Shown here in pieces: positions 5,314 through 40,719 of a DNA stretch of 64,000 nt (position 1 is its first letter; each line of letters begins with the position of its first letter). Source of the stretch: Oscillospiraceae bacterium. GTDB lineage: Bacteria > Bacillota > Clostridia > Oscillospirales > Oscillospiraceae. The DNA lies in contig WRLE01000017.1 of assembly GCA_009777775.1 (NCBI GenBank), forward strand, positions 5,622 to 69,621, written 5' to 3'. The notes below the pieces were generated by a model. It searched no databases, was not told the origin of the DNA, and saw only the letters and a program-made list of their open reading frames with translations. The position numbers and the translations under genes are program-made.

Positions 5314-5328
5314 TTTATGTCATCACTC

Positions 5329-6405: not shown

Positions 6406-6424
6406 AGCATATTCCTTGCTGTCA

Positions 6425-22780: not shown

Positions 22781-25700
22781 ATGATTAAAAGGAAAAAAAT
22801 TACCAGCATTGCATTGACCATTATAATGATAATTACCCTATGCCTGAGCTTCACTGGCAAAGAAAGCTTTGATAAAGCAAGGGCAGCAGCCGATTACAGC
22901 TTTCGCTCCTTTGGAACAAATCTCCAGTGGAGGCTATCCATGGACGGATATTTGGAAATCACCCTGGTGGATAGTAGCCAATCCTCCGAATGGCCCAGCA
23001 ATTGGGGAAGCGGAAATATAAACGCTCCCTGGTATCCCTTTAGGGATGGAATAAAAATCGTAGCCATTGGCGAAGGTATAAACAAAATCGGCGACTATGC
23101 CTTTAACGCTTGCACAAGTCTGGCAATAGTCAACCAATTTAATGGTCCTGGTAAAGCCGGCATCACACATATAGGAAATTATGCCTTCAACGGCTGTGTC
23201 AGCTTAACTGATTTGGAAATATGGGGAGATACCAGCGTGATTTACATTGGCGATTATGCCTTCAATAATTGCGTCAGTCTCAGTCATATAAATACTGAAG
23301 ATACATTCCACATTGGCAACTACGCATTCAATGGTTGTTTAAACATAGCAAGCCTTAAACTCCCAGCAGTGGCAAATATTGGAAATTACGCATTTAACGG
23401 CTGTGTGAACCTTAATAGAATCGACCTTCCCGGCAGAATGGAAAGTATAGGAGAAGGTGTTTTTTCCGGTTGTAGGAGCCTGGAAACCATCAATGTTTCC
23501 GATTTGGGCGATGGTTATCTTTATCTTGATGTGATTCGTGAAGACCCCAGCGAATTCGGGGTCTTGTTCTGTGTATACTACAATCTATCTTCTGGTGAAT
23601 GGGAAGCCAGAATAATCAAAGCCGAAGTATGGGATACCGGAGTTTTGCGAAGCTACAATATCTTAGAGAGACCTGAAATCGATTTTAGCCGTTATCCTCC
23701 CAATTATGTACAAGAAAAGGTGAACTTTCCGTTGAAACGCATCGATGTGGAAGCCTTTGCCTATCAAAGCAACTTTACAAAAGTAACAGTCCCTGCAACA
23801 GTGGACTACATAGGGCTTAACGCCTTTTCCTGGAGCAACAATTTAAAAGAAGCACATTTTTTCGGTCATGCGCCGATTATCCCCCAAGTTCCCAATGTAA
23901 ATAACAATGCTCGGATTTTTGAGAGCGTTGATAGGGAGTTTGTCATTTATTTTGATTTTTATCCCAATGTTAGCTCCACAGGCTGGCCTCTACCGCCATC
24001 AACAAATTGGCGGGGTTATAAAGCAATCGCAAATAATGTCTATGTTTTGATTGCTCCCTCCACCCCTGACAACCCTTACACACCAGTGGTTACAACCTTG
24101 TCAAAGGGTAGCACAATACAGCTTCGAGCCACAGTCTATCCCCAAAACGCCAGTCAGGAAGTCATATGGAGCAGTAAAGACCCTGATATAGCCACCGTTT
24201 CCAGCACTGGAGTTGTCCACGGCATTAGCGAAGGCGAAACGATAATCACAGTGACAACGGCAGATGGCAGCAGGTTCGCATCTCGCCGAGTCCATGTTAT
24301 AGACCGCATCATTCCCATTACTGCAGTAGCACTAAATAAAAGCCGCATGACCTTGATATTGGAAACGGAAGGTGGAGTGGACTCTGGACTTCCCTTTGAT
24401 ACCTTGACAGCCATTGTCCATCCCAACAATACCGCTCCAGCTCCAACATTAATATGGAAAAGTAGCAACACCAGCATTGCATACGTGGACATCATCGACC
24501 CCTTGGAGCCACATAACGCCATCATCGTTGGCGTATCCCCTGGAACAGCAACGATTACGGTCACAGCAAAAACGGAGTTTGGAGAAATTACAAGCACAGA
24601 AACCACAGTTATCGTCACAGCAAACCCCTACGACCCCTCTGTTTTTGTACCCGTGACAAGCATAGCCTTAGACCCTGCTGTTCCCTCGCTCCCAATGGGC
24701 GGAACAATCAACCTATCTGAACTAGCCACCGTGCTACCCCAGAACGCCACCAACAAGGAAATTACAGGCTGGCGTATACTGGAAGATCTTTCCACAATCA
24801 GCGGTGCCGTTATTACCATGACTGGCGAATTGAGCGTGCCTGCCATCGAAATGGGAATGGTGGTTGTGGAAGCAACCATACTAAAAGGCAGATCCGATGC
24901 CCAGTGGGGTTATGGTGCTGATATAGCCGATGCCGATTACACACAATTTTTCACCATCAGCGTGGTTAGCTTTGAACCGGTAATCGCCATTCAAAACATC
25001 CCACAAACCGCCCATGCAGGTGTTCCTCTACTCCTTACTGGTACAGTTGTCCCCCAGGATAGACCGATTCATTGGTCCATAAGCGAAGACGATAGCGGCG
25101 AAACAGCGGCATATATCGACCCTGTTAGCGGAATGTTAGTAGCCCAGCGCACAGGCTTTTTACGAATGGTAGCCACCGTATATAACGGAAAATGGGTAGA
25201 CAGTCTCACGGGCGGAACCCTTGAAACATATAGAACAATCTTTACCATACGAGTACTGCCCTATGACCCCAAAGTACTCACCATTAGAGCAAATCCCGGT
25301 GGGAGAATCAGCATAGCAAATAGTCAATCACCCACAGCATCAATTGTGGTTGACAAATCCGTGGAAGAAACCTTGGAAATCAGAGCCCACCCGGATCCGG
25401 GCTATATATTCGCTGGTTGGAGCTCCACAAATGGTGGCGAAATCAAAGATGCCAGCAATCCAACTACCATGTTCACAATGCCCATGACCGCCACCACAGT
25501 AACAGCATTTTTCACATATACAGGAGTCTCCAGTGGCTCATCCAGCGGAGCGGTGGTTATACCAACACCAAGCCATTACTTCACATATGGAAATAGATAC
25601 CAGCAAGGCTCGGATGTGGATTTTTCCCATATAACGAGGAGAGATTTTCAACTCTTCAGCCATGTGAGCCTTGATGAAAGAACACTAGTAAAAGATGGGC

Positions 25701-26419
25701 ATTATACAGTGGAACGCATAGGAGCCTACACAATGGTCACCCTTGTAAACGGCTATTTAGACTCACTGGGAAGCGGCTCATATACACTAAATGTCTATTT
25801 TAGCGATTTGGTAACAATAAGTGCCACTTTCACCATTGAGGCATCCAGTAGCACAGCAATTCCCCAATCCCCCATTGGAGCGCAAATGTTTGACGATGTG
25901 CGCGTGGGAGACTGGTTCTATATGGAAGTTTCATATGTCGCCGAACGGGGCTGGGTCACCTCCAATGCATCAGACCCCAGGCTATTTAGGCCTAACTCCT
26001 CAGCTACCCAAGGTGAAGCCATCGATGCCCTCTACCGCCTCTCCGGAAGACCAGGAATGATATCCTCAGATGGTCGAGGACTCAGCGGACGCAGCGCGGC
26101 ACTTGAATGGGCTCGGCAAAATGGCATCGTCCCCGTGGGAGGGGTAATAAATGCAGACAGCCTCATAACAAGGCAAGACATGGCACAGCTTCTCTCTCGC
26201 CTGGTGAGCGCAAACAATATGAAATATCCCATAACAAGGGCACAACCAAATTTCGTCGATGAATGGTCAATAGACCAAGCAGTCCGCAGTGCGGTTATCA
26301 ACCTATATAGAGCAGGGATTATAGATGGAAGAACAGTAAACACCTTCGTCCCCCAAGGCAACCTAAGCCGCGCCGAACTATCAGTAATCCTCTACCGCTT
26401 CACAAACGTAATGGAGTAA
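22781..26419 (+). CDS. Large (1212 aa) surface protein: BspA-type LRRs, Big_2 domains, InlB-B-repeat, C-terminal SLH domains
   Basis: GGAGGA RBS. Signal peptide. Repeated IGNYAFNGC / IGDYAFNxC LRR units. Big_2 (VIWSSKDPDIATVSSTGVVHGISEGETIITV). B-repeat (GYIFAGWSSTNGGEI...TVTAFF). SLH (FDDVRVGDWFYMEVSYVAERGW; FVDEWSIDQAVRSAVINLYRAGIIDGR). Confidence 0.9.
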   Translation: MIKRKKITSIALTIIMIITLCLSFTGKESFDKARAAADYSFRSFGTNLQWRLSMDGYLEITLVDSSQSSEWPSNWGSGNINAPWYPFRDGIKIVAIGEGINKIGDYAFNACTSLAIVNQFNGPGKAGITHIGNYAFNGCVSLTDLEIWGDTSVIYIGDYAFNNCVSLSHINTEDTFHIGNYAFNGCLNIASLKLPAVANIGNYAFNGCVNLNRIDLPGRMESIGEGVFSGCRSLETINVSDLGDGYLYLDVIREDPSEFGVLFCVYYNLSSGEWEARIIKAEVWDTGVLRSYNILERPEIDFSRYPPNYVQEKVNFPLKRIDVEAFAYQSNFTKVTVPATVDYIGLNAFSWSNNLKEAHFFGHAPIIPQVPNVNNNARIFESVDREFVIYFDFYPNVSSTGWPLPPSTNWRGYKAIANNVYVLIAPSTPDNPYTPVVTTLSKGSTIQLRATVYPQNASQEVIWSSKDPDIATVSSTGVVHGISEGETIITVTTADGSRFASRRVHVIDRIIPITAVALNKSRMTLILETEGGVDSGLPFDTLTAIVHPNNTAPAPTLIWKSSNTSIAYVDIIDPLEPHNAIIVGVSPGTATITVTAKTEFGEITSTETTVIVTANPYDPSVFVPVTSIALDPAVPSLPMGGTINLSELATVLPQNATNKEITGWRILEDLSTISGAVITMTGELSVPAIEMGMVVVEATILKGRSDAQWGYGADIADADYTQFFTISVVSFEPVIAIQNIPQTAHAGVPLLLTGTVVPQDRPIHWSISEDDSGETAAYIDPVSGMLVAQRTGFLRMVATVYNGKWVDSLTGGTLETYRTIFTIRVLPYDPKVLTIRANPGGRISIANSQSPTASIVVDKSVEETLEIRAHPDPGYIFAGWSSTNGGEIKDASNPTTMFTMPMTATTVTAFFTYTGVSSGSSSGAVVIPTPSHYFTYGNRYQQGSDVDFSHITRRDFQLFSHVSLDERTLVKDGHYTVERIGAYTMVTLVNGYLDSLGSGSYTLNVYFSDLVTISATFTIEASSSTAIPQSPIGAQMFDDVRVGDWFYMEVSYVAERGWVTSNASDPRLFRPNSSATQGEAIDALYRLSGRPGMISSDGRGLSGRSAALEWARQNGIVPVGGVINADSLITRQDMAQLLSRLVSANNMKYPITRAQPNFVDEWSIDQAVRSAVINLYRAGIIDGRTVNTFVPQGNLSRAELSVILYRFTNVME

Positions 26420-26430
26420 AAAGATGTGGT

Positions 26431-26580
26431 ACTCCTGACTCCTGACACGCACCATAAACCCAAGAATACCAACTCCTAACTCCTAACTCCTAACTCCTAA
26501 CTCCTAACTCCTCACTCCTAACTCCTAACTCCTAATTCCAACTCCTAACTCCTCACTCCTCATTCCTAATTCCAAATCCC
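26431..26580. repeat. Tandem heptamer array: 2 x ACTCCTG, then about 16 units of AACTCCT (ten perfect, plus CACTCCT, CATTCCT, AATTCC variants)
   Basis: Read directly. The array ends 4 nt before the GGAGGA SD (26585-26590) of the 26599 ORF. The unit is the reverse complement of AGGAGTT. Confidence 0.95.
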
Positions 26581-26598
26581 TACTGGAGGACATATAGA

Positions 26599-29500
26599 AT
26601 GACCAGAACAAGCATATATAAAAAAATACTAGCAACACTTCTCTTGCTATGCGCAACTATAATGCTATTTTTACCCATTGGAAATAAAACGGAGGCATCA
26701 GCTTCCCCAGGCTTTACCAATTGGATAGACATAGCGGACACCAGTTGGTACGACGTACCCAATGCCAGTGTACCAATAGGACCCGAGAATCTAACTGGTT
26801 CTGTTTCTGTAGTTCATCAGTATTATATAAACTCCGCAGAGCAACTAGCAGGTCTAGCTAGATTGGTGAACAATGGCACAGCAACCTTCGAGGGAAAGAT
26901 AATATACCTCACATCGAATATATATCTAGCGGACAAACAATGGACTCCCATAGGAACAGTAGCTAGACCTTTTTTGGGAACATTCTCCGGTATGTATGAT
27001 GACAAAGTTTATGCCATATACGATTTGCGCATCGATCCATCAGCAACCCAAAACATTCACATTGGACTCTTTGGGGTTGTTGGTAGACCCGATGCACCTT
27101 CTATGCCAAATAGATATGATCACCCAGCCATCGTGGAGCATGTCAGGCTAGTAGACCCATTTGTATATGTCACCACAGGACCCCCAACAGTACCAACTTA
27201 CTCCGTGGGAGGAGTCGTCGGTAGAAACTACGGAAGTATATTATATAGCTCCGTCATAGCTCGCAGGACCATGCAGGAAGTATCTGGTCAAAACAGTCGC
27301 GGCGTTGGCGGTATTTGCGGCGAAAACTACGGTATTATTCAAGAATGTTATAACGAAGGTCAAGTAACAGGTTTTGATGGCAACAGCCTCAGCGGAGCTG
27401 GCGGAATCGTCGGAGACAATAGATACGGCGGTGTTGTGGAAAACTGCTACAATACAGGAACCATCAACTCCACCAGGAAAAGCGTGGGTGGCATCGTTGG
27501 ATATAACTATGAAGGTGGATTAATAAATCGTGTATATAATATAGGTGAAATCACCATCAGCGGTGTTGATACAGGCTTTGGTGGCATATGCGGAACCAAC
27601 GATGGAAAAATCGATTATGCAGCATATTGGTATGGCGATAAAGACCAGCGTCTTGGTGGGCAACCTATTGACGAGGGTAGCACCTCCATGAGGAAGCAAG
27701 GTGTGGGCGGCGGCATTGGCACATACAACGGAGTCAATCGCATCAACGGCACCGCTATCAATAACCTCAGCAGCTATCCAGGCTTTATATTCACCCCCAC
27801 AGCTCCTGATACTTGGAGTTTTGTGACTAGTCCAGGTCCAGACGATTATCCCATGTTGGTAAATGTACCCGAAATCCCAGATACAACAATCAACACAATT
27901 AACATCTACCTGACCCCACCACGAACAAGCGAACCACCAAGCATTGCTGTGACTAGCAACACAAAGGGAATTGAGGTTGTGGATGTAAATTGGCTCGGTG
28001 TTGTTGGTAATTCATTTGCTGCTACAAATTATACAGTGGAAGTTACGATTAATGCAAAAAGTTTATTTGTATTCAATACAGCTCTCACATCATCTACTGT
28101 TTATATAAATGGAGCTTCAGCAACAGTTGTAAGTAATACTGCCGATACTGTCGTATTATCAAGATCATATGTAACTGGTTCAGGCGATTTAGCTATTCCC
28201 CAAAACCGTCAACCTGCAAACAGAACTCTAATGGAAAACACTGGAACAATCATATCTGTTGAGCATTCTACAACATCGTTGCATGATGTTTATTACCAAT
28301 GGTACAGAAATGATGACGGAATCCCTATTCCTATCGGTGGACCAATACTAAACAACTATTCGCTTCCGATTACAGCAGCAAGTCTACCCTTAAGCGGAAG
28401 TCCATATATTTATTATTGCGAAATAAGTCAATTAGCACCAAATGAAATTATCCAATCTCGTGAAGTTATAATCACCGTATTACCATATCAAGTTTCCGGG
28501 CAGTTCCTTGACCCCTGGGATAGAAACTTCAGCTTTGCCACCTATGCAAGCAATCCTTGGGCTTGGGATTTCAGCTCTGCCACATATGGCTATGAAGCGC
28601 AAAGACCCCGCAACATCAGGGCATCTAACACCACTAGAACCATAGTACCGACACTTACATACGTCATCACAGGCGATGACCAAATGTTCGAGCGTCCAGT
28701 ACCTCCCTCTCTCTGGGGCATTCCTAGAGGTGGCAACACAAGCTTCACCATCGCTCCAGCTCTTGGGCTACCCGTGGGTAGATACTTCGCAACGGTAACC
28801 CTGGTGGAAATTAGCAAAAGCATCAACCTTAGCTTTGAAGTCTTGCCAAAAATCCAGGACACACCAAAAATTCAAATAGACTATATCGAAGAAAAACTAA
28901 TTGGCTTTAATCCAGACGAGACATATACCATCAGCATTAGCGGTGTTCCCATAGTTGGATTTGCTAATTTTACTGGCATATCAGAAATCGACCTTTTTGA
29001 CTTGATAGGAGCCTGGACAACAGACATTGACTTGGAAATTGTCATGAAGGGCGAAACCGTCATATTTCCTGCCATTGCTAATATATGGGATAGCGCAGCT
29101 CAGCTCTTGACTATTCCCAAGAGACCAGCCCCACCAACAGGCTTAACGGGAATCATGCCCGATAGAATAGCAGGTAAAGACGGAAAAATCCTAGGAACAA
29201 CGGATCAAATGGAATATAGCCTCGACCCTCCAGGAGCTGATACTTGGATTGCCTGTACAAATGTTGAAACATTAAACGTTATTCCCGATGATAATTACCA
29301 TGTTCGATATAGAGCAAATCCAGACCCAGATGGAAACTTTAGAAGTCTGTCAGCAACACCTTTGTTAAAAGTTCCACAACGCCCAGGACCCTTGGAAGCC
29401 ACTCCATCCTCGCTTATTAATTACGAAAAAGAAACCCTATACAACCTCGTTCCCACAGCGGAATACATGATAAATGGCGAAGCGGTGGTGTTTAATGCTG

Positions 29501-32500
29501 ATGGCGAAGTAGACATTAAAGAAGCATGGTTCGATACTACCATTGAGCTAATCAAAGTCGGCACAGGAAATTGGCAGACAACAGGAGACAGCCATCCCCA
29601 AATGGTATGGATAAAAGCCAGACAAGCAACTCCACTGGCAACGGATGTTATAGGCGTTCCCCCCGCCACCATTGCAGGCACCATTGGCGAAATCACTGGA
29701 ATGGAAGCGGGTATGGAATTTAAATCAAAGGACGAAGATCTGGAAGTCATCATAGACGGCGGCAGTCCCATATTAGCCGATGATTGGATGGATTATATCG
29801 ACCCATCAATGGTGGAAGGAGAAATCGGACCTTATCTGGTGAGAAGAAAAGCCAGCAACACTCTATCAATTTTCGCCAGCCTCCCATTGGAGGTGGCAAT
29901 CCCAAGACAGGACGGCTCTCCAGAACCCACTCCCCTCGCCATGATTGATTTCATCAATGAAAGGCTAATAAACCTGGATTTCGGCGCAGCATATAGGATT
30001 AACTATGCTTCTCAATCCCTAATTGCATCAGGTGTTGCAGGAAGTGGCTGGTTAGCCATCAACGAAGCATGGATGGGAACACAAATCAGCATAATCAAAA
30101 GGGGCGACGGAAGCACATCCATAGACAGTGACTCACAATTCCTTCGCATACCAGCAAGACCAGCAGCACCAAACATTACAGCGGAAGCCCCCAGTGTATA
30201 TGCAGGATTGGGTCAGCTTTTATCAACGGATACCACAATGGAATACAAACTATCCAGCGGTCCCGATGTATGGACTGTCTGCCAATTCCCTGAAACGGAC
30301 TTACTACCTGGCGATTACGAAGTGCGGATAAGGGCTGTGGGTGGAATCAACGGAAACTTCAAGAGTAATCCCACCCTCATCACAATACCCGAGTGGACGG
30401 CAGACCCAGAACCCACCCCTGAAGTCATAATCGATTATATAGAAGAAAAACTCACAAACTTTGAAGATACTGCCAGTTACACCATAAAAATAAACGATGT
30501 GGAGCAACTAGTGGGCGGCAGTACTGTATTTACCAATCTTACAGAGCTTGTCATCGACCCAACGTGGATGGATGAAATAATACATATCATCAGAAAAGGT
30601 GACGGTGTTCTCACCCGAGACAGCGACCCACAGATTCTCTCTCTGGAAAGACCGGAAGCACCAACTAACCTGGTGGGTGTACCACCAACTTCAGCAGGAA
30701 TGAGTGCGAGAATCAGCGGAACAACAGGAGCGATGGAATATAGAGCATATGTTGACCCCCAACCAAGCCCACCGATACCATGGGTAACATGCTCCAACCA
30801 AACAACCTTTGTGGGACCTCCAGGAACCTATGAAGTCCGAATCCGTGCTGTTGCAGGACCAAATGGAAACTTTGCAGGAAAATCCGCCCATGTCACCGTC
30901 ACAGACATCACCGTACCCCCAGAGAGCATCACCTTTGAAGCAGTACAAGTGGGCGGAGCCTCAGGAGTGGCTGATAGCACAGGTATAGAAATTACATTTA
31001 ATAGATCCATAACGGGCTTAGGACTCACAGCCGACGACATTGTTATAGTGAACGACACAGGTGCTGTGGTGAAAGGAAGCCTCTCAGGCTCCGGAAGAGT
31101 CTATACAATTGCCCTATCCAATGTGGTGGCAGAAGGCGATGTCCATGTGAGTATTAAAAACCTCGGAGCCTTCACAGTCACAGGACTGCCCTCCAATCCC
31201 GTTCATGTAAGGGTTTATAAAAACACCAGTGGCATGAGCATAGTGGTGGGCGCCCAAAACGGACTACTGAGAACAGGCATCGCTGGCTCCGTTAGATATA
31301 CTGTAACAACCACAGGAATACCAGTGGGTAGCGCCATTAGCCTCATGAATTTGAACTCTGTCACAGGTATCACCATGGACACAGCGGTGACGGTGGGCAA
31401 CACAACCTATATAACTATACGAACCACAGCGACCACTCCCCCAGGAACCCATCCCCTACGCTTGAGTATATATGGAATAAGATCAAATGTATTTCATTTG
31501 GTGATTGACCCCAGCCAAGGTGTAACACCTCCTTTGACCACATATACAGTGACAGTAACCGGTAGCGCAGCCACTAGTACCGGAGCTGGAATATATTCCC
31601 CAGGAGAAGCAGTCTCAATATCTGCTGGTATACGAGATGGATACAGCTTCAGCGGCTGGACAGCCTCTGGTGGAGTAGCAGGAGGGCTGGAGTTTGAAGA
31701 CCCCAACAGCCCCACCACAATATTCCTCATGCCCAATGGCAATGTCACAGTTACAGCGAATTGGGGTGTTGCCATAACAGACCATGTCATATACACCGCT
31801 GAGCAAATAGGCGGTGTGAGCGGCAACCTCAACAGCACAGCCATACGCCTTGTCTTTGACCGACCAGTGACAGGTTTAACTGCCAGTCATATAAATATCA
31901 CAAATGGAAGCGGATCGGCCACAAAGGGAACTCTCTCAGGCTCTGGAAATACATACACCCTTGCCCTTACAAACGTAACGACGCAAGGTACAGTGAGCAT
32001 CTCCATAGCCAATTTCGGCAGCTATGCGGTGAGTAATAATCCGCAGATAGTGCAAGTATTCAGAGATGCCAGCGGTAGAAGAATCCAGGTGGGAGCACAA
32101 AATGGTTATCTGGAAGAAGGAACATTCGGCTATGTCACATACACAGTGACAACGGAAAACATTGCAAACGGTTCCTTTATTCAACTAAATAACTTAGACA
32201 ATCACCCCGGAATCACCTTAGACTCAGCATACACAACTGGAAACAGCACCATTATAACCATCAGGACAACCAATGGGACTCTTCGTGGACAGCATCCCCT
32301 CTCCCTGACCATTAACGGCTTGACATCAAATAATTTTGAACTCACCGTGGGAAGACCAGGAAGCAGCGGAACTGCCTCCACATATACAGTTTCCATCAGC
32401 GGAAGTTATGCATCAGGAACAGGAAGCGGACGGTATTCCCCAGGCTCACTGGTGACAGTCCAAGCGGGAACACGAGCAAATTACAGCTTTAACGGCTGGA

Positions 32501-34002
32501 CCTCATCAAGCTCAGTCAGCTTTGCCGACCAGTATAATCCCAGTGGAGTCTTTGTGATGCCCAGCTTTGATGTTAGCCTCACTGTGAATTGGCAAGCCAC
32601 ATCCCAGGAAGTTACATTCACAGCAAACGAAATTGGAGGAAGCAGCGGAAACACCAATAGCACAGGAATACGCCTTAACTTCAGCCAATGGGTAACAGGA
32701 CTGACAGCAGGACATATCACAATAACCAATTCCAGGGGAGCCGTGGTGAAAGGCGAGCTAACAGGCTCAGGTAACACATATACCATTGCCCTATCAAATG
32801 TAACCGCCGAAGGGACAGTAAACGTGAGCATCGCCAACTTCGGCATATACGAAGTAACAAACACAGCCAGGCAGGTAACAGTCTATTGGAACAATACCAA
32901 TAGAAGACTAACGATGGGCAGCCAAAATGGAACATTGGCTTCTGGAACATGGGGAGAAGCCACTTTCAACGCAACAACGACGAACATCCCCACAGGAAGC
33001 ACCATAAGCCTTGACAATATCAACTATGTCTCGGGCATAACCCTCAATACGACACAAACCAGCGGGAACAGCACCAGCGTTGCCATATCAATATCAAGCT
33101 CCACACCAATAGGAGCTCACCCCCTGAGACTCATCATAGGAGATGTATCCTCTGATGTATTCTACCTAGCAGTGGGGAGCCAAAGTCAAAGCACTACTGG
33201 CACATACACATTGACAATTAGTGGAAGTTACGCCGCCCAAACGGGAGCAGGACGTTACTCCCCAGGTCAGATTGTCACAGTCCACGCTGGAAGCCGTAGT
33301 AATTATACTTTCTCAGGCTGGACAAGCAGCAGCGGTGTTTCTCTGGCAAATCGCAATAACGCAACGACAACATTCGTAATGCCCAGCCATAATGTGACAA
33401 TCACAGCCACTTGGAATATATCAGGCTCCACAGGCGGTGTTGGCGGCGGTACTGGAAGCGGTGTTGGCAGCGGCTCAGCATATGGCAGCAGCCCTTGGGC
33501 AACATCCATGATAGAACTGGCAATAGCCACAGGTCTAGTACCCACACAACTGAGAAGTAATTACACAGCGGACATCACCCGAGCCGAATTCAGCGCACTC
33601 GTGGTAACCTTATATGAAACCCTCAATGCTCGAGAAATAACGGAGCGAGCAGAGTTTAGCGATACCTCAGATGTCTATGTGCAGAAAGCAGCAGCCATGG
33701 GCTTTGTAAACGGAGTGGGAGGAAACAGATTCAACCCTGATGGACTTCTCACCAGAGAAGAAGCAGCGGTAATCATAGTCCGCCTAGCCACAGAACTGGG
33801 TTGGGATCTACCCCAGCGAGATATGCTCTTTGCAGACCATAGCCAAATCTCCATCTGGGCACTCACCGCAGTGGGTCAAGTCCACGCAGCCGGCATCATG
33901 AGCGGCGTAGCCGAAAACACCTTCGCCCCAAAATCCCAAGTAACCCGCGAACAAAGCATAGTCCTGATATTCAGAATGTACGACGGAAGAAGGTCGTACT
34001 GA
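26599..34002 (+). CDS. Giant (2467 aa) surface protein: GLUG-motif region, repeated two-domain modules, three InlB-B-repeat-containing modules, C-terminal SLH domains
   Basis: Signal peptide. GLUG-type motifs (GGICGENYGIIQECYNEGQVTG, GGIVGDNRYGGVVENCYNTGTIN, GGIVGYNYEGGLINRVYNIGEI). Four modules starting IDYIEEKL / INYEKETL / IDFINERL. Three roughly 280-aa modules, each ending in a B-repeat (YSFSGWTASGG...VTVTANW). SLH repeats at the C-terminus (FSDTSDVYVQKAAAMGFVNGVGGNRFNP). Confidence 0.9.
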   Translation: MTRTSIYKKILATLLLLCATIMLFLPIGNKTEASASPGFTNWIDIADTSWYDVPNASVPIGPENLTGSVSVVHQYYINSAEQLAGLARLVNNGTATFEGKIIYLTSNIYLADKQWTPIGTVARPFLGTFSGMYDDKVYAIYDLRIDPSATQNIHIGLFGVVGRPDAPSMPNRYDHPAIVEHVRLVDPFVYVTTGPPTVPTYSVGGVVGRNYGSILYSSVIARRTMQEVSGQNSRGVGGICGENYGIIQECYNEGQVTGFDGNSLSGAGGIVGDNRYGGVVENCYNTGTINSTRKSVGGIVGYNYEGGLINRVYNIGEITISGVDTGFGGICGTNDGKIDYAAYWYGDKDQRLGGQPIDEGSTSMRKQGVGGGIGTYNGVNRINGTAINNLSSYPGFIFTPTAPDTWSFVTSPGPDDYPMLVNVPEIPDTTINTINIYLTPPRTSEPPSIAVTSNTKGIEVVDVNWLGVVGNSFAATNYTVEVTINAKSLFVFNTALTSSTVYINGASATVVSNTADTVVLSRSYVTGSGDLAIPQNRQPANRTLMENTGTIISVEHSTTSLHDVYYQWYRNDDGIPIPIGGPILNNYSLPITAASLPLSGSPYIYYCEISQLAPNEIIQSREVIITVLPYQVSGQFLDPWDRNFSFATYASNPWAWDFSSATYGYEAQRPRNIRASNTTRTIVPTLTYVITGDDQMFERPVPPSLWGIPRGGNTSFTIAPALGLPVGRYFATVTLVEISKSINLSFEVLPKIQDTPKIQIDYIEEKLIGFNPDETYTISISGVPIVGFANFTGISEIDLFDLIGAWTTDIDLEIVMKGETVIFPAIANIWDSAAQLLTIPKRPAPPTGLTGIMPDRIAGKDGKILGTTDQMEYSLDPPGADTWIACTNVETLNVIPDDNYHVRYRANPDPDGNFRSLSATPLLKVPQRPGPLEATPSSLINYEKETLYNLVPTAEYMINGEAVVFNADGEVDIKEAWFDTTIELIKVGTGNWQTTGDSHPQMVWIKARQATPLATDVIGVPPATIAGTIGEITGMEAGMEFKSKDEDLEVIIDGGSPILADDWMDYIDPSMVEGEIGPYLVRRKASNTLSIFASLPLEVAIPRQDGSPEPTPLAMIDFINERLINLDFGAAYRINYASQSLIASGVAGSGWLAINEAWMGTQISIIKRGDGSTSIDSDSQFLRIPARPAAPNITAEAPSVYAGLGQLLSTDTTMEYKLSSGPDVWTVCQFPETDLLPGDYEVRIRAVGGINGNFKSNPTLITIPEWTADPEPTPEVIIDYIEEKLTNFEDTASYTIKINDVEQLVGGSTVFTNLTELVIDPTWMDEIIHIIRKGDGVLTRDSDPQILSLERPEAPTNLVGVPPTSAGMSARISGTTGAMEYRAYVDPQPSPPIPWVTCSNQTTFVGPPGTYEVRIRAVAGPNGNFAGKSAHVTVTDITVPPESITFEAVQVGGASGVADSTGIEITFNRSITGLGLTADDIVIVNDTGAVVKGSLSGSGRVYTIALSNVVAEGDVHVSIKNLGAFTVTGLPSNPVHVRVYKNTSGMSIVVGAQNGLLRTGIAGSVRYTVTTTGIPVGSAISLMNLNSVTGITMDTAVTVGNTTYITIRTTATTPPGTHPLRLSIYGIRSNVFHLVIDPSQGVTPPLTTYTVTVTGSAATSTGAGIYSPGEAVSISAGIRDGYSFSGWTASGGVAGGLEFEDPNSPTTIFLMPNGNVTVTANWGVAITDHVIYTAEQIGGVSGNLNSTAIRLVFDRPVTGLTASHINITNGSGSATKGTLSGSGNTYTLALTNVTTQGTVSISIANFGSYAVSNNPQIVQVFRDASGRRIQVGAQNGYLEEGTFGYVTYTVTTENIANGSFIQLNNLDNHPGITLDSAYTTGNSTIITIRTTNGTLRGQHPLSLTINGLTSNNFELTVGRPGSSGTASTYTVSISGSYASGTGSGRYSPGSLVTVQAGTRANYSFNGWTSSSSVSFADQYNPSGVFVMPSFDVSLTVNWQATSQEVTFTANEIGGSSGNTNSTGIRLNFSQWVTGLTAGHITITNSRGAVVKGELTGSGNTYTIALSNVTAEGTVNVSIANFGIYEVTNTARQVTVYWNNTNRRLTMGSQNGTLASGTWGEATFNATTTNIPTGSTISLDNINYVSGITLNTTQTSGNSTSVAISISSSTPIGAHPLRLIIGDVSSDVFYLAVGSQSQSTTGTYTLTISGSYAAQTGAGRYSPGQIVTVHAGSRSNYTFSGWTSSSGVSLANRNNATTTFVMPSHNVTITATWNISGSTGGVGGGTGSGVGSGSAYGSSPWATSMIELAIATGLVPTQLRSNYTADITRAEFSALVVTLYETLNAREITERAEFSDTSDVYVQKAAAMGFVNGVGGNRFNPDGLLTREEAAVIIVRLATELGWDLPQRDMLFADHSQISIWALTAVGQVHAAGIMSGVAENTFAPKSQVTREQSIVLIFRMYDGRRSY

Positions 34003-34005
34003 ATT

Positions 34006-34033
34006 AGGAGTGAGGAGTTAGGAGTGAGGAGTT
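34006..34033. repeat. Four tandem heptamers AGGAGTG AGGAGTT AGGAGTG AGGAGTT, starting 3 nt after the stop codon
   Basis: Exact reverse complement of units in the 26471-26580 array; 27 of 28 nt are complementary to 26506-26533. Confidence 0.95.
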
Positions 34034-34047: not shown

Positions 34048-34077
34048 ATTAATTCCCCTCCTTTGAGGGGAATTAAT
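34048..34077 (+). terminator. Hairpin terminator (13-bp perfect stem ATTAATTCCCCTC / GAGGGGAATTAAT, loop CTTT)
   Basis: Read directly, downstream of the 26599-34002 gene. The T-tract after the stem is weak (CCATTTATCTT). Confidence 0.6.
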
Positions 34078-34086
34078 CCATTTATC

Positions 34087-34115
34087 TTGACGAAATAATG
34101 TAAACAACGTATACT
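34087..34115 (+). promoter_or_regulatory. Predicted sigma-A promoter of the glycan operon (TTGACG, 17-nt spacer, TATACT)
   Basis: TTGACG at 34087-34092, a 17-nt spacer, TATACT at 34110-34115; about 40 nt upstream of the GAGGA RBS and ATG 34154. Confidence 0.55.
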
Positions 34116-34153: not shown

Positions 34154-35494
34154 ATGATACGAAAAATGGGCGACATATTGCTGTTTTTCGCAAAAACCCT
34201 ACTATTTTGTATAGTCCTGAGCATCTATTTCATCGGACAAATTATCTTTTACGAACATACGCTTTTCTATTATTGGGGCAACTATATAATTATTATTTTA
34301 TATGCTGCATACCTATACTTTCTATGCAGGATCTATCAAGCATTCATGATTGGAAGCTTAAACCCAACGGAAATAATCCTATCATGGATACTCTGCCTTG
34401 CAGTGACCAACACCCTCCAATACCTGATACTCAGCCTGGTGCAAAGTAGCCTTTTGTCAATTTTCGGTTTTCTCGCAGTGCTCACAGCGCAAATAATCAT
34501 CCTCATACCATTGACGCTGCTAATAGACAAGCTATACTACCACCTCAACCCTGTGCAAAAAGCCATCATAATATACGGAGATGGAGAAAAAGCTAATATT
34601 TTTCAGAAAATTGTGGAAAGAAACCATAAAAAGTTTGAAATATCCAATGTTATATCCCAAGACGAAGCAATAGAAACAATAAAAAGCATCATAGAAAGCT
34701 CCGACTGCGTGATATTTATGGAGATAAATGAAAAAAGCAGAAGTATCCTAATGGAGCATTGCTTTTTACACAATAAAAGATCATACATCATGCCAGCATT
34801 TTCCGATATCATGATAAATACAGCGGAAATAGCATGGATATCAGACATCCCGCTATATCTGCCAAAAAGCTCCGAACCAGACATGGGAACGAGATTCATG
34901 AAACGCTGCATGGACATTTTTATATCCCTCTTTGCCATTGTGCTACTGAGCCCAATCATGCTCATCACATGGCTACTCATCGTTCTTTATGACAGACAAA
35001 AGGGCATCTATAAGCAAGTTCGGGTAACCAAAGGTGGAAAACTCTTCACTTTATACAAATTTCGCTCCATGCGCACAGATGCAGAAGACGATGGCATCCC
35101 CAGGCTCACCACAAAGGACGATGACAGAATCACCCCCATAGGCAGATTCATACGCAAAACAAGAATAGACGAACTCCCCCAGCTTTTCAACGTCTTAGCG
35201 GGAAGCATGTCCCTGGTTGGTCCCCGCCCCGAACGACCGGAAATCGCAAAACAATACGAGGAAATTTACCCCAACTTTTCCCTGAGAACAAAGGTGAAAG
35301 CAGGCTTAACAGGCTTTGCTCAAATCCACGGCAGATACAACACAGCCCCCGATGAAAAGCTGCTCATGGACATAATGTATATAGAACGATTCACAATTTG
35401 GCAAGACTGCAGACTGATATTACAAACCTTAAAAGTCCTATTCAAACCCTCCAGCACAGAAGGCGTTGACAAAGACAAGGAAACGGCGTTGTGA
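34154..35494 (+). CDS. Polyprenyl-phosphate hexose-1-phosphate transferase (WbaP/WsaP/CpsE family initiating enzyme)
   Basis: N-terminal multi-TM block, a central soluble domain, and a C-terminal bacterial sugar transferase domain (KRCMDIFISLFAIVLLSPIMLI, YKFRSMR, DELPQLFNVLAGSMSLVGPRPERP, GLTGFAQI). Confidence 0.9.
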   Translation: MIRKMGDILLFFAKTLLFCIVLSIYFIGQIIFYEHTLFYYWGNYIIIILYAAYLYFLCRIYQAFMIGSLNPTEIILSWILCLAVTNTLQYLILSLVQSSLLSIFGFLAVLTAQIIILIPLTLLIDKLYYHLNPVQKAIIIYGDGEKANIFQKIVERNHKKFEISNVISQDEAIETIKSIIESSDCVIFMEINEKSRSILMEHCFLHNKRSYIMPAFSDIMINTAEIAWISDIPLYLPKSSEPDMGTRFMKRCMDIFISLFAIVLLSPIMLITWLLIVLYDRQKGIYKQVRVTKGGKLFTLYKFRSMRTDAEDDGIPRLTTKDDDRITPIGRFIRKTRIDELPQLFNVLAGSMSLVGPRPERPEIAKQYEEIYPNFSLRTKVKAGLTGFAQIHGRYNTAPDEKLLMDIMYIERFTIWQDCRLILQTLKVLFKPSSTEGVDKDKETAL

Positions 35495-35497
35495 ATT

Positions 35498-35525
35498 AGG
35501 AATGAGGAGTTAGGAGTTAGGAATG
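35498..35525. repeat. Four tandem heptamers AGGAATG AGGAGTT AGGAGTT AGGAATG; stacked SD sequences, with the last ATG being the start codon of the next gene
   Basis: Read directly. It begins 3 nt after the TGA stop of the WbaP-like gene, in the same TGAATT context as at 34000. Confidence 0.9.
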
Positions 35526-37124
35526 GCGAAAAGAACAACTACTGACCTTTCTGAGCGTAGAATGGTTGCGATGTACTCCCAGGTGGATAAATGGCAAAAC
35601 AGATTAGCAGCAACGCTAGTCTTTATGATATTTTGCCTCCAACCCCTCTACCTAAACAGCGACCGTTATTTTCGTCTAACCTGGCATAAATTCGTATTTT
35701 TCATCGTTTATATGATAATTGTCCTCATCGCCGTTGCTGTCATATGGCTGAGTAGAATTTTCAACAAACCAAGACTAGTCATTAGAGAAAAACCAAACCT
35801 AGCAGAATGGGCTATACTTGCCTTTGGGCTACTAGCCATAATATCCGCCATCATATCACCATATAAAAAAATGATAGACATAAGAGGTCTACCAGTGGAT
35901 TGGAAAATCGGACTAAACGAACGATATGACGGCATTGTTACCCAACTTATGTATATAGCCATATTTTTCATCGTCGGACGCTGGTATAAACCCAGTGAAA
36001 AACAATTCATCTTCTTTGGTATAGCAGCAATTATAGTCGCCGGAATCGGAATCCTACAATTTTATGGAATGGACTTTCTAAAACTCTGGCCCAATCACAT
36101 CCCCGAATACCATAAAGAAAACTACTATGACTTGGTATTTCGCTCCACGCTGGGAAACACAAATATCGTATCCACATATGTCTGCGCCGCAGTAATATTA
36201 TGCGGATTTTTATATATAAAATCGAACAGTAATTGGAAATACCTCTGGCTAGCAGCCAGTAGCCTGAACTTCTGGCTCATGGACTTGGCAGATGCCGATT
36301 CTGGGCGAGTGGGTGTACTGGCAGCTATGATATTCATGATACCATATATCATCGAAAGCACAAAAACCATGGGAAAAACCCTTACCCTGGCAGCCTCGTG
36401 GATAAGCCTGTACTCCCTCCAGAAGCTTCTCTTTGACGTGAATATAATACACATTAAGACAGTAAACAGTCTACTCCCCTTTGCCATTGCGATTGTGGTA
36501 ATGGCAGCAGCGGGGATTCTCCTTGACATAAAGGGTAAAGAGCGAGATAAAGACGCTGCTCCCAGATGGAAAATCGGACTTGCACTAATTGTGCTGATAA
36601 TATTAGCAGGACTAGGTGGGGCAGAAATTCTAGGTCGCCGCCCAGCGGATGACCCTAACCCAGGCGGCATCATATACGAAGTACGAGAAATCCTCCACGG
36701 TAATATTAAAGATGAATTTGGCACAAACCGTATATTCGTATGGCGACAGGCAATGTCCATATATTCACAAAACCCAATATTTGGATCAGGACCCGACACC
36801 TTCCTCTTCGTCTTCCCCATCGAAGCACAGTGGACATACGACGAACCCTATGACAAAGCACACAACGAATACCTCCAACTGCTCATATGCCAAGGCATAC
36901 TCGGTTTACTGAGCTATTTATTCTTCATTATCACCGTAGCAATCAAAGCGATACCCAAAGCATTCAAAAACCCACTTTTAACAGTCGTTCTAGCAGCATT
37001 CATAGGCTATCTCACCCAAGGATTCTTCAACATAAGTCTACCCATAACTAGCCAGCTCCTATGGGTCTTCGCAGGAATGCTAGTTAATAAAAATGTATGG
37101 GCTTCCGATTCAATAAGTGAATGA
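35523..37124 (+). CDS. O-antigen ligase / Wzy_C family polytopic membrane protein (candidate WaaL- or WsaB-like glycan transferase)
   Basis: About 12 predicted TM segments and a large loop carrying RIFVWRQA...GSGPDTF...AHNEYLQLL, characteristic of the Wzy_C/O-antigen ligase family. Confidence 0.8.
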   Translation: MAKRTTTDLSERRMVAMYSQVDKWQNRLAATLVFMIFCLQPLYLNSDRYFRLTWHKFVFFIVYMIIVLIAVAVIWLSRIFNKPRLVIREKPNLAEWAILAFGLLAIISAIISPYKKMIDIRGLPVDWKIGLNERYDGIVTQLMYIAIFFIVGRWYKPSEKQFIFFGIAAIIVAGIGILQFYGMDFLKLWPNHIPEYHKENYYDLVFRSTLGNTNIVSTYVCAAVILCGFLYIKSNSNWKYLWLAASSLNFWLMDLADADSGRVGVLAAMIFMIPYIIESTKTMGKTLTLAASWISLYSLQKLLFDVNIIHIKTVNSLLPFAIAIVVMAAAGILLDIKGKERDKDAAPRWKIGLALIVLIILAGLGGAEILGRRPADDPNPGGIIYEVREILHGNIKDEFGTNRIFVWRQAMSIYSQNPIFGSGPDTFLFVFPIEAQWTYDEPYDKAHNEYLQLLICQGILGLLSYLFFIITVAIKAIPKAFKNPLLTVVLAAFIGYLTQGFFNISLPITSQLLWVFAGMLVNKNVWASDSISE

Positions 37125-38452: not shown

Positions 38453-38476
38453 TTAAACAACAAAGGGTTGAAAAAA

Positions 38477-39910
38477 ATGGAAATAATCGGTAGAGAACGA
38501 GAGCGGGAAATATTGCGACGATGCGAAAACTCGGACAAACCTGAGTTTGTAGCCATATACGGACGACGCAGAGTTGGGAAGACCTATCTTGTTGTAGAGC
38601 ATTTTCATAATAAGTTTACATTTTCCGTTACAGGAGTTTCTGATGGAAAAACAAAGGATCAGCTTCGCGTGTTTCACAGCGCGCTAAAAAAACACTTCCA
38701 ATCTGACATTCCAGAGCCAAAAAACTGGTTTGACGCATTCATCTTGTTGGAAGAGCAACTCGAAAAAGACATTACCCTTGCTCGAAAAGTATTGTTCATT
38801 GACGAAATGCCATGGCTCGATACACCAAAATCGAATTTTTTACCCGCTTTAGAACACTTCTGGAACTCCTATGCATCTAGGAGAAAAGATATCCTCCTTA
38901 TTGTTTGCGGATCAGCCGCTTCATGGATAATAAAGAATTTGATGAACAGTTACGGAGGTCTACATAATAGGTTAACAGAAAATATAGTTGTTGAACCATA
39001 TTATTTATACGAATGCGAAGCATTCTATAGAAGCCGCGGAATCGCTATGACTAGGCACCAAATGGCTGAGGCTTATATGATACTTGGAGGTATTCCATTC
39101 TATATGGATGCAATGAATAAAATGTATGGGCTAAACCAAAATATAGATATGCTTTTATTTGAAAACAACGCAAAATTAGAAAACGAATTCAACCGCTTAT
39201 ATAATTCCCTATTCCGTCACGCAGATAACCATATAAGCATTGCTAAAACGCTCGCAAAAAATAACACAGGAATGACTCGAAAGGAATTATCCCAAGCCAG
39301 TGGAGTTTCTGACGGTGGCGGCTTGACCAAAGTGTTAGAGGAAATGGTTGCATGCGGTCTGATTGGTCGGAGTTTTGACATTTCGAAAAAGAGAAATGGC
39401 GATTACTACAAACTAGTCGATTTCTATACCCTATTCTATTTTAAATACATAGAAACGCAAAAGGGAAATGACCCACGATTCTGGACCAATTATTTATCGT
39501 ACCCAGCACATAGGACTTGGTGCGGTTACGCATTCGAAAGGCTTTCTATTGCTCACAGCCAACAAATCAAACAAAAACTAGGAATATCAGGGGTATTATC
39601 TGAAACATATGTTTTTAGGAGCATCGGACAAAGAGGAGTCTCCAGTGGAGCACAAATTGATTTGGTTATTGACCGTAAGGATGATGTAATAAATCTTTGT
39701 GAGTGCAAATTTACAGTCCAACCATACGAACTTACTGAAAAAGACCTCGCTGATTTCGAGCGAAAAAAGACAGTTTTTCTACAAGAAACCGCAACAAAAA
39801 AAGCAATCCACCTAACAATGATCACATCAAGCGGACTCGTCCACAATGCATATAGAAACGAAATTCAATCAGAAATTACATTAGACGATTTATTCCAGCC
39901 TTTGTTGTAA
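38477..39910 (+). CDS. AAA-type ATPase (Arch_ATPase/ATPase_2 plus DUF234-like C-terminus)
   Basis: EIIGREREREILRRCENSDKPEFVAIYGRRRVGKTYLV (Walker A), Walker B LFIDEMPWL, and a winged-helix-like, nuclease-like C-terminal part (IDLVIDRKDDVINLCECKF). ATG 38477 was preferred over TTG 38468. Confidence 0.75.
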   Translation: MEIIGREREREILRRCENSDKPEFVAIYGRRRVGKTYLVVEHFHNKFTFSVTGVSDGKTKDQLRVFHSALKKHFQSDIPEPKNWFDAFILLEEQLEKDITLARKVLFIDEMPWLDTPKSNFLPALEHFWNSYASRRKDILLIVCGSAASWIIKNLMNSYGGLHNRLTENIVVEPYYLYECEAFYRSRGIAMTRHQMAEAYMILGGIPFYMDAMNKMYGLNQNIDMLLFENNAKLENEFNRLYNSLFRHADNHISIAKTLAKNNTGMTRKELSQASGVSDGGGLTKVLEEMVACGLIGRSFDISKKRNGDYYKLVDFYTLFYFKYIETQKGNDPRFWTNYLSYPAHRTWCGYAFERLSIAHSQQIKQKLGISGVLSETYVFRSIGQRGVSSGAQIDLVIDRKDDVINLCECKFTVQPYELTEKDLADFERKKTVFLQETATKKAIHLTMITSSGLVHNAYRNEIQSEITLDDLFQPLL

Positions 39911-39914
39911 GCTC

Positions 39915-39928
39915 ATAGCTCGCTGAAA
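39915..39928. repeat. Third copy of ATAGCTCGCTGAAA, a direct repeat of 38299-38312
   Basis: Exact 14-mer read directly. Together with 38299-38312 it flanks the ATPase gene. Confidence 0.8.
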
Positions 39929-39929
39929 T

Positions 39930-40136
39930 ATGACTAAGTACACTTTCACAAAGACATCAGTTTTTTCACAGCTCAATAACCTAACTGATATTACAATGAT
40001 AGAAGAATATGCTGACATTTGTGGAATACCTGTAGATAGTCTTGAAGAAGGGAAGCTCGAGATTATGCTGGATATACTGCGAGGGTTTTTCGCTTCTATC
40101 CCCTATGAGCTCCACCTCAATGCGGAGGCTTCCTAA
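39930..40136 (+). pseudogene. Internal fragment of an AAA-ATPase_like/PDDEXK_9-type gene
   Basis: FTKTSVFSQLNNLTDITMIEEYADICGIPVDSLEE and FFASIPYELH resemble the middle of the PF09820-type ATPases common in gut anaerobes. It is only 68 aa and has no ATPase N-terminus. Confidence 0.5.
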
Positions 40137-40179
40137 GCAGAGACGAAATTGAAATGGTTGTTGAATAATTAGGTATAAA

Positions 40180-40719
40180 ATGGATAAATTATCATATAGT
40201 GACTACTATTCATGGGACGATGGTAAACGCTGGGAACTAATTGACGGTATCCCATATGCCATGGCACCAGGACCATCACAAGAACATCAATCAATATCAA
40301 TGGGCATAAGTAATCAGCTATATAATTTTTTAAAAGGCAAAACCTACAAAGTCTTCTCGGCACCTTTCGATGTCCGTCTAAACCACGATTCCGAAGATGA
40401 CACCGTTGTCCAACCTGATATAATAGTAGTATGCGACGAAACCAAACTTGATGGAAAAAGCTGTAACGGTGCCCCTGACATGGTGGTGGAAATTTTATCA
40501 CCAACAAGCGAAAGGAACGACCGAGTAGTAAAGTTTCATCTCTACCTACGCTACGGAGTAAATGAATATTGGATAGTAGACCCGGTAGAAAAGACAGTAC
40601 AGACCCATATACTCGAAAACGGAAGATACATTATAAACGTATACACCGAAACTGACGAAATACAGGTACATACTCTAGAAGGACTGACGATAAAGCTAGC
40701 AGAGGTGTTTGTAGGATAA
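40180..40719 (+). CDS. Uma2 family (DUF820) PD-(D/E)XK endonuclease
   Basis: WELIDGIPYAMAPGPSQEHQ, VVQPDIIVVCD, APDMVVEILSPTS, VNEYWIVDP: the canonical Uma2 pattern. Confidence 0.85.
   Translation: MDKLSYSDYYSWDDGKRWELIDGIPYAMAPGPSQEHQSISMGISNQLYNFLKGKTYKVFSAPFDVRLNHDSEDDTVVQPDIIVVCDETKLDGKSCNGAPDMVVEILSPTSERNDRVVKFHLYLRYGVNEYWIVDPVEKTVQTHILENGRYIINVYTETDEIQVHTLEGLTIKLAEVFVG

Follow-up and report, generated by a model that had tools for sequence, protein, structure and literature searches.

The short tandemly repeated repetitive (STRR) sequences of heterocystous cyanobacteria, whose classical units are CCCCAGT, TTGGTCA and CAACAGT, were reportedly described by Mazel and colleagues in 1990, and in Haemophilus influenzae the number of 7-bp repeats upstream of hmw1A and hmw2A tunes the expression of these genes. 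Units of 7 nt are also the commonest among prokaryotic long simple-sequence repeats (LSSRs), according to the summary of Mrazek et al. (2007) given by MacGregor (2015; PMC4679880), a paper that describes TAACTGA arrays lying by start codons in Beggiatoaceae, Cyanobacteria and Bacteroidetes, reports insertions and deletions in 7-nt steps between close strains, and proposes a role in post-transcriptional regulation; the same paper cites the AGAT repeats in the 5' untranslated region (UTR) of Moraxella catarrhalis uspA2 as an experimentally studied case. In this article, I discuss a heptamer family whose unit is AGGAGTK or AGGAATK and, on the complementary strand, MACTCCT or AATTCCT, of which three arrays occupy intergenic spacers within a 64-kb stretch (the window) of one metagenome-assembled genome (MAG) from a gut Oscillospiraceae lineage. 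Arrays 1 and 2 bracket, in inverted orientation, a 7.4-kb gene for a surface protein (hereafter the big gene), and a first-pass annotation of this DNA had read the bracket as a dedicated two-array architecture. The arrays are probably better explained as local copies of a fast-evolving heptanucleotide satellite of intergenic spacers, and since three adjacent spacers carry that satellite, the bracket would be a by-product of it rather than a device that serves the gene.

With the STRR sequences these arrays share the form of dispersed tandem heptamers in Nostocales, where AACTCCT arrays are the most abundant among the matches listed, although the units are others and the window is from a Firmicute. 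With hmw and uspA2 they share a tandem repeat that separates the start codon of a large surface-protein gene from the sequence 5' of it, but array 1 is intercistronic rather than set between a mapped promoter and its gene, and the family extends beyond surface-protein genes. The repetitive extragenic palindromes (REP) and their composites BIME and REPIN, reportedly treated by Bertels and Rainey in 2011, are said to be likewise dispersed and intergenic, with inverted halves in constant order that form hairpins within operon transcripts; their arms are of a fixed ~20-35 nt, whereas here each arm is a run of tandem heptamers whose length varies, and no gene like those of the REP-associated tyrosine transposases (RAYT) turned up, although no search was aimed at them. 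Like the LSSRs, as far as the summarized part of Mrazek et al. (2007) extends, the arrays consist of tandem 7-nt units beyond chance expectation, are mostly intergenic, are patchy across phyla and are assumed to change by slippage; the Oscillospirales hosts, a unit that resembles a Shine-Dalgarno (SD) or anti-SD sequence, and paired arms of fixed polarity seem to lie outside that description. The TAACTGA repeats also adjoin start codons, sometimes overlap the end of the upstream open reading frame (ORF) and have cyanobacterial and Bacteroidetes hosts, but TAACTGA hardly resembles an SD, whereas AGGAGTK does and the complement of AGGAGTK is anti-SD-like, and the single inverted pair reported for TAACTGA (MacGregor, 2015) contrasts with the many found in the AGGAGTK family. 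While the satellite kind itself is known, the AGGAGTK/AACTCCT unit and its Oscillospiraceae host lineage appear to be undescribed; a literature search with the dimer strings AACTCCTAACTCCT and AGGAGTTAGGAGTT returned only an unrelated human paper, without bacterial context.

Arrays in the window and at orthologous loci

A pattern of two units with at most 2 mismatches matches the window 18 times against 0.30 expected, and none of 100 shuffled sequences reaches 18 (all array counts for this genome are confined to the window). Tandem Repeats Finder (TRF) places array 1 at 26471-26573, with period 7, 14.9 copies, 90% matches, a score of 157 and the consensus AACTCCT, and read from the bases it continues to 26580 in degenerate CATTCCT, AATTCC and AAATCCC units; among its ~15 units six perfect ones stand in unbroken succession, the variants include CACTCCT, CATTCCT and AATTCC, and only 4 nt separate its end from the GGAGGA SD of the big gene. 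Array 2, which TRF places at 34006-34032 as 3.9 copies of AGGAGTG/T, starts 3 nt past the TGA of the same gene (34000-34002), and its reverse complement matches the segment 26506-26533 of array 1 at 27 of 28 nt. The first-pass annotation had described both correctly, as an AACTCCT array at 26471-26580 and (AGGAGTK)4 at 34006-34033 with 27/28 complementarity and a 13-bp hairpin thereafter, and they are indeed beyond chance. What it overlooked is array 3, TGAATTAGGAATGAGGAGTTAGGAGTTAGGAATGG, which in the other phase reads AGGAATG AGGAGTT AGGAGTT AGGAATG, occupies the whole 28-nt spacer from the stop of a sugar-transferase gene to the ATG of a wzy-like gene, and provides the SD of the latter, with AGGAG 6 nt ahead of the start codon. 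A tandem 7-nt unit beyond chance, intergenic and in several copies, is what characterizes a heptanucleotide LSSR, and the window holds three such arrays; an Rfam scan of the window gave no match at the gathering threshold.

The same spacers can be followed in relatives. Among the records compared, L123 and L129 come from one sample and probably from one genome, and L124 and L125 (the latter found in a metagenome scan) belong to one species. The big gene is resident, with orthologues of 53-69% protein identity holding the same position in relatives: L125 encodes a full-length orthologue (63% identical), the product of the gene 5' of the transferase in L123 and L124 matches the C-terminal part of the big protein at 69% and 66% identity, and the transferases themselves are 80% and 76% identical to that of the window. 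Also, the leucine-rich-repeat (LRR) gene that lies 5' of the big gene has orthologues in the same place in L125, L129 (LRR 69%, big-gene N-terminus 53% identical) and L130 (LRR 56% identical).

The most informative of these spacers is that between the LRR gene and the big gene in L129, which reads TAA-gtatg-(AATTAGG)5-44 nt-(ATTCCGA ATTTCGA ATTTCGA ATTTCA)-CTGGAGG-tccata-ATG, with a G-rich arm at 6884-6918, a C-rich arm of (AATTYCG)~4 at 6962-6988 and the unit AGGAATT, the two arms pairing in the predicted fold. It is a composite hairpin as defined here, namely a G-rich arm past the stop codon of one gene together with a pairing C-rich arm ahead of the SD of the next, at most 400 nt away, and because the orthologous spacer keeps such a composite, array 1 can be read as the 3' arm of an intercistronic composite. 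The L129 C-rich arm abuts the SD just as array 1 does in the window, and the L129 central spacer resembles window 26447-26470 (by eye, unscored). The window spacer itself falls outside the definition, for it has the C-rich arm alone, and at the site of the L129 5' arm it carries a mini-array, (ACTCCTG)2.3, in the same orientation as array 1 and no G-rich arm. As judged from this alignment of positions, array 1 appears to correspond to the C-rich 3' arm, which would have grown from ~4 to ~15 units and changed its unit.

The position of array 3 is occupied by (AATTAGG)4 in L123 (5330-5360), by (AATTCCG)~3 in L121 and by 1.5 units in L124. Furthermore, the spacer between the LRR and big genes is 53 nt long and without an array in L125, where TRF found no 7-nt array in 14 kb, and in L130 it shows small hairpins only and no array. 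Unit type and number at orthologous spacers therefore differ strongly between species, as the fast change of LSSRs would have it, and the earlier suggestion of a slippage-prone, fast-changing repeat fits these differences, (AATTYCG)~4 in L129 standing against (AACTCCT)~15 in the window and none in L125 and L130. Within one genome the units are alike (AGGAATT in L129/L123, AGGAGTK/AGGAATK in the window arrays) and between species they differ, a pattern that suggests homogenization, presumably by gene conversion or a shared generating process, and with it the concerted evolution of a satellite. Past the stop of the orthologous big gene no heptamer array was found in L123 or L124/L125, where each species has a hairpin of its own; because array 2 is absent there, and because L125 and L130 are without an upstream array, the two-array bracket is not conserved. 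The promoter-like TTGACG-17-TATACT of the transferase gene is base for base the same in L123 and L124/L125, in surrounding sequence that cannot be aligned.

Several observations made at these loci stand by themselves. At the position of array 2 and its terminator, L123 has a near-perfect palindromic hairpin of ~146 nt (3705-3851), for which Rfam gave a chance miRNA-like match. In L121, a more distant relative whose transferase is 70% identical, the big gene is missing from this place and the sugar transferase comes straight after an LRR/SLH gene (6655-11347); this layout may be paralogous, its LRR protein being only 38% identical. The idea taken from L121, that the big gene was inserted as a cassette together with its arrays, was rejected, since L125, L129 and L123 keep orthologues in place and the L121 LRR protein stands at 38%. 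Also set aside as uninformative was P0121 (L122). Of the full-length homologues in the protein database it comes closest to the big protein, at 35% identity, and its gene has array-free flanks and stands in another neighborhood.

Distribution, composites and polarity in other genomes

An exact search for (AACTCCT)4 in the contigs of one genome per species gave at least 120 loci (L001-L120), and the matches listed are mostly from Nostocales cyanobacteria, with others from Bacteroidota, a Neisseriaceae MAG, Thermoguttaceae, Leptospira and eight Oscillospirales/Clostridia loci (Acutalibacteraceae L036, L037 and L062; Limivicinus L049; Oscillospiraceae L091 and L101; Clostridiales L047; Clostridia L110). 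Comparable arrays are present in many isolate genomes among these matches, and when the window was compared by blastn with the 120 loci listed from the pattern search, the repeats were the only homology found. A search of related genomes for (AACTCCT)n beside surface-protein genes had been proposed, and what it reveals is a family that is not specific to such genes and flanks housekeeping genes. L036 alone has 5 arrays within 8 kb, all AGGAGTK in the sense of the adjacent gene and lying at or over its stop codon or just 5' of a start, and the genes they flank encode a PALP enzyme, dapA, dapB, an ACT protein and a holin; the L049 array site is the purL-guaB interval, and the array of L101 lies between two metH-type genes, where it provides the SD. 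Since a 7-nt unit does not make whole codons, TAG or TGA falls in all three frames of an array, and ORFs consequently end inside arrays. With arrays flanking dapA/dapB, purL-guaB and metH, with array 2 not conserved, and with the order of the window pair reversed relative to the pairs described below, the claim of a dedicated architecture for the surface-protein gene was not borne out.

In L049, L091 and L110 the arrays form composites between co-directional genes, which read in mRNA sense as a stop codon, (AGGARTK)4, a spacer of 50-122 nt with small GC hairpins, (AAYTCCT)4-6, ~15-20 nt, an SD and an AUG, and those of L049 and L110 fold with their arms paired at -56.8 and -62.2 kcal/mol (z = -7.1 and -7.3). 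A crude count of orientation in Oscillospirales gives 12 arrays that are G-rich in the sense strand against 4 that are opposite, the four being the 3' arms of the three composites and array 1 of the window, and this bias is absent in Cyanobacteria (25 vs 30).

Some conserved elements accompany the arrays in these relatives. L049 (2361-2411, GGTATCGGCTTCGCCGAT) and L110 (710-759, GGTATCGGCTTGCGCCGAT) have a small hairpin motif in common in the spacer, followed by a second GC hairpin; the motif belongs to no Rfam family, and related loci gave only chance miRNA-like matches. In L047 (36-135 and 2268-2367) a conserved module of ~50 nt, CGGATGAGGGTG...CAAGAGGCT...ACCAAAGGGCT, lies ahead of both arrays, and one L047 array holds (ACCTCCT)4, the exact anti-SD core (2396-2423).

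The pairs of arrays have a direction. Across the loci listed there are 212 arrays of the AGGAGTK/MACTCCT unit family, and taking as pairs those in opposite orientation and at most 400 nt apart, (AGGAGTK)n precedes (MACTCCT)n in 31 of 31, of which 22 are cyanobacterial and 3 each come from Bacteroidota, Neisseriaceae (L044) and Oscillospirales. When the same loci were searched without regard to the unit, 36 inverted period-7 pairs emerged; 13 are built of unrelated units, among them ATTGGGG/CCCAATC, ATAGGGA/TTCCCTA and GAAAATT/AACTTTC, and the 5' arm is the G-richer strand in 35 of the 36, the exception having a unit of A and T only. These counts overstate the number of independent events, because the loci are phylogenetically non-independent and were all chosen for their AACTCCT arrays. 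As a palindrome is identical on both strands, neither gene orientation nor replication direction can explain the polarity alone. Rho avoidance was considered as its general cause and rejected, since most of the pairs are cyanobacterial and cyanobacteria, to my knowledge, lack Rho. The pair in the window (26471 and 34006) has the reverse order, C-rich first, which is a further reason not to see it as a standard composite that has been stretched.

Now considering this polarity, one might propose that the arrays, rather than being passive products of slippage, each form one arm of a two-armed, structured intergenic element made or kept by a polar process, and that in the window the element is split, so that the C-rich leader arm pairs with the 3'-UTR array or, in trans, with the array that forms the wzy SD. 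Such a process could be 3'-end-directed repeat addition, a hairpin-specific enzyme acting on single-stranded DNA, or selection on co-transcriptional folding, and the proposal would account for both the G-first order in four phyla and many units and the pattern of one unit per genome; I regard it as improbable. If it were true, expression of the surface protein would be coupled to the polysaccharide locus. In any case, the G-first polarity and the one-unit-per-genome pattern raise the question of how heptamers are generated, which has been open since the STRR sequences were described.

The leader RNA and competing explanations

The satellite may nevertheless have a local effect. The G-free run that includes array 1 (26465-26584) is 120 nt long with 42% C, the next longest in the window being 47 nt (2.5-fold shorter), and the leader alone is predicted to be unstructured, with a minimum free energy of -13.7 kcal/mol and z = +0.65. 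The first-pass annotation had suggested that this leader masks the ribosome-binding site, and thermodynamically that is plausible: the SD bases are 87-98% paired with the leader in the predicted ensemble, and opening all six costs 6.1 kcal/mol with array 1 against 3.4 with the array deleted, so the predicted masking is modest. The part of the suggestion that does not hold concerns the heptamer itself, for mononucleotide-shuffled arrays mask equally well (7.4 +/- 1.5 kcal/mol) and the masking is thus an effect of composition, not of the order of the units. The companion idea that the leader titrates 30S subunits fails, because an ACUCCU leader resembles the 3' tail of 16S rRNA and cannot do so; the AGGAGU arrays, with predicted energies of -11.0 and -9.1 kcal/mol against a generic anti-SD (the big gene's own SD gives -9.3), could.

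The explanation that I favor, that of a spreading satellite, would then run as follows. A heptanucleotide satellite, whose unit abounds in Nostocales and also occurs in Bacteroidota and further phyla, would have colonized the spacers of this Oscillospiraceae lineage. In Oscillospirales it usually takes one of two forms: a G-rich, SD-like sense array at or just past a stop or just ahead of a start, or the composite stop-(AGGARTK)n-spacer-(AAYTCCT)n-SD-AUG, whose arms pair as a long imperfect hairpin. Array 1 would be a 3' arm that lost its 5' partner and presumably grew to ~15 units by slipped-strand mispairing, arrays 2 and 3 would be ordinary members in sense orientation, and array 3 would have become the ribosome-binding site of the wzy-like gene. 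With the LRR and big genes presumably co-transcribed, array 1 would form a 120-nt, G-free, CU-rich intercistronic leader that partly sequesters the SD and, being unstable in length, would make expression of the surface protein both lower and more variable. For the big gene, the most likely consequence predicted from these models is a leader that is variable, masks the SD and is possibly sensitive to Rho.

Some points weigh against this explanation. The array census behind it covers 64 kb of this genome only, and three arrays in three consecutive spacers with none elsewhere in the window are clustered non-randomly. Of the 19 Oscillospirales arrays examined, array 1 is the longest and also the sole solo one that is C-rich in sense, and it may be under selection rather than a decayed remnant; likewise, the unit variant common to the three arrays could be a sign of functional coupling and not of gene conversion, and both the slippage and the effect on expression are inferred from sequence.

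A possible though doubtful alternative gives the number of units in array 1 a purpose, namely that slippage changes leader length and SD masking and so sets the level of the surface protein, much as in hmw1A/hmw2A and uspA2. The ~15 units, six of them contiguous and perfect, directly 5' of the SD of a protein with a signal peptide and SLH domains are what one would look for, and the great variation in unit type and number at the orthologous site between species points the same way, as does uspA2 as a studied precedent for 5'-UTR repeats (cited in MacGregor, 2015; PMC4679880). But the heptamer family flanks housekeeping genes in relatives, masking comes from composition and not unit order, and since the scan of the spacer gave no promoter 5' of the array, changes in unit number alter neither reading frame nor promoter spacing; moreover, the only two assemblies are identical and probably drawn from the same reads. 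Less likely is a role for array 1 as a Rho loading site, whereby transcription of the big gene would depend on how fast ribosomes load and on unit number. A Rho utilization (rut) site is C-rich, G-poor, unstructured RNA, of which Rho needs ~70-80 nt, and in silico the untranslated, intercistronic array 1, in a G-free run of 120 nt with 42% C and z = +0.65, has these properties at sufficient length (at least 70-80 nt). Rho is absent from some Firmicutes, however, and neither a rho gene within the 64-kb window nor evidence of termination downstream was found, while cyanobacteria, which lack Rho as far as I know, carry the same arrays, so that the family as a whole would stay unexplained.

The first-pass annotation also proposed that the 5' and 3' ends of the mRNA pair, and the prediction does give a strong duplex between arrays 1 and 2 (-62.3 kcal/mol; -53.2 between arrays 1 and 3). 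Such a clamp of ~28-35 bp would close a 7.5-kb mRNA and either stabilize it or create a site for RNase III, in the manner of the processing stems of 16S and 23S rRNA precursors, and it draws further support from the lack of any terminator found between the two arrays, with one following array 2, and from the pairing of C-rich with G-rich arms that is normal in relatives, the local partner being gone in the window. The layout does not recur, though: array 2, and with it one half of the clamp, is missing after the orthologous stop in L123 and L124/L125, none of the evaluable genes in relatives with an upstream C-rich arm has a G-rich array past its stop, and at short range the C-rich-then-G-rich order occurs in 0 of 31 pairs. 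Pairing is also opposed by ribosomes translating a 7.4-kb ORF and by the long wait until transcription reaches the 3' array, and I consider the clamp distinctly unlikely. The suggested inversion of the whole gene by recombination between the 27/28-nt inverted arrays, flipping 7.5 kb off the operon promoter as an ON/OFF switch, is very improbable. The inverted repeats do flank the gene along with its own SD, as in an invertible switch, but 28-bp repeats are at the lower limit for homologous recombination, none of the 36 scanned window ORFs has a recombinase, invertase, transposase or reverse-transcriptase domain, both assemblies show one orientation, and the orthologues share it and are without the 3' array. 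Equally hard to credit is that the length of array 1 arose from short-read mis-assembly, for while the contig is metagenome-assembled and a 110-nt array is near read length, two assemblies (contigs of 69.6 and 55.9 kb) are identical at every base, the interspersed variant units follow a specific order, and similar arrays are found in many isolate genomes.

These comparisons matter beyond one locus. Where complementary arrays flank an adhesin-like gene, annotators should not assume a dedicated switch, and SD-like arrays at stop codons together with anti-SD-like arrays before SDs provide a natural setting in which translational coupling, SD masking and, perhaps, Rho loading can be studied, with array lengths that change in 7-nt steps.

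Gene neighborhood and assembly

The LRR gene is probably the first cistron of the operon of the big gene (Table 1). The earlier remark that neither promoter nor terminator separates array 1 from the preceding gene agrees with a scan of the + strand at 26419-26599, where sigma-70 consensus criteria gave no promoter-like site and no terminator-like site was seen; array 1 as a promoter was rejected on the same scan, and the promoter serving the big gene likely lies 5' of the LRR gene. A polysaccharide cluster lies 3' of the Wzy_C gene. These assignments rest on a Pfam scan of 36 window ORFs, among them every non-nested ORF of 150 aa or more.

Table 1. Features of the arrays, their flanking genes and example inverted pairs
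Feature	Record	Position	Strand	Basis or remark
Upstream LRR gene, 1212-aa LRR_5/Big_2/Flg_new_2/SLH surface protein, MCL2046762.1	Window	22781-26419	+	Pfam
Mini-array (ACTCCTG)2.3	Window	26431-26446	+	TRF
Unique central spacer acacgcaccataaacccaagaatacc	Window	26447-26470	+	Read from bases
Array 1, ~15 AACTCCT units and variants	Window	26471-26580	+	C-rich strand in mRNA sense; TRF and bases
Shine-Dalgarno GGAGGA of big gene	Window	26585-26590	+	Bases
Start codon ATG of big gene	Window	26599-26601	+	Bases
Big gene, 2467 aa, signal peptide, Flg_new_2 and SLH, MCL2046763.1	Window	26599-34002	+	ORF, Pfam
Array 2, AGGAGTG AGGAGTT AGGAGTG AGGAGTT	Window	34006-34033	+	G-rich and SD-like in sense; 3' UTR, between stop and terminator
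13-bp stem-loop with T-rich tail	Window	34048-34077	+	Probable terminator of LRR-big gene transcript
Promoter-like TTGACG-17-TATACT of sugar-transferase gene	Window	34087-34115	+	Kept in L123, L124/L125
Bac_transf polyprenyl glycosylphosphotransferase (sugar transferase), 446 aa	Window	34154-35494	+	Pfam
Array 3, (A)ATTAGG AATGAGG AGTTAGG AGTTAGG AATG	Window	35494-35525	+	Pattern search
Wzy_C (O-antigen ligase/polymerase-like), 533 aa	Window	35523-37124	+	Pfam
Example inverted pair, G-rich arm first	L053	5073-5215
Example inverted pair, G-rich arm first	L057	1482-1601
Example inverted pair, G-rich arm first	L110	682-787

The proteins of the locus are deposited at NCBI as MCL2046761-65, 'MAG: Oscillospiraceae bacterium', and a 42.7-kb contig of the Joint Genome Institute (JGI) carries P0210, a variant of the big protein from the same species. 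A further contig, from JGI 3300002469 (L128), is 100% identical to window 25523-47124 (21.6 kb), arrays included; as it probably derives from the same reads as the window, it supports the assembly and is silent on variation.

Elsewhere in the window, a restriction-modification pair is encoded on the - strand at 4366-6567, with a HindVP-family restriction endonuclease (5329-6567) and a C-5 cytosine DNA methylase (4366-5313). A 1075-aa protein made up almost entirely of RCC1 repeats (6825-10052) is followed by a 980-aa lipase-type protein with fn3 and LCAT/PGAP1-like domains (10148-13090), and both have several SLH surface proteins as neighbors. Amid the glycosyltransferase/polysaccharide cluster, an ATPase_2/AAA_14 protein and a putative endonuclease of the Uma2 family are encoded at 38468-40719.

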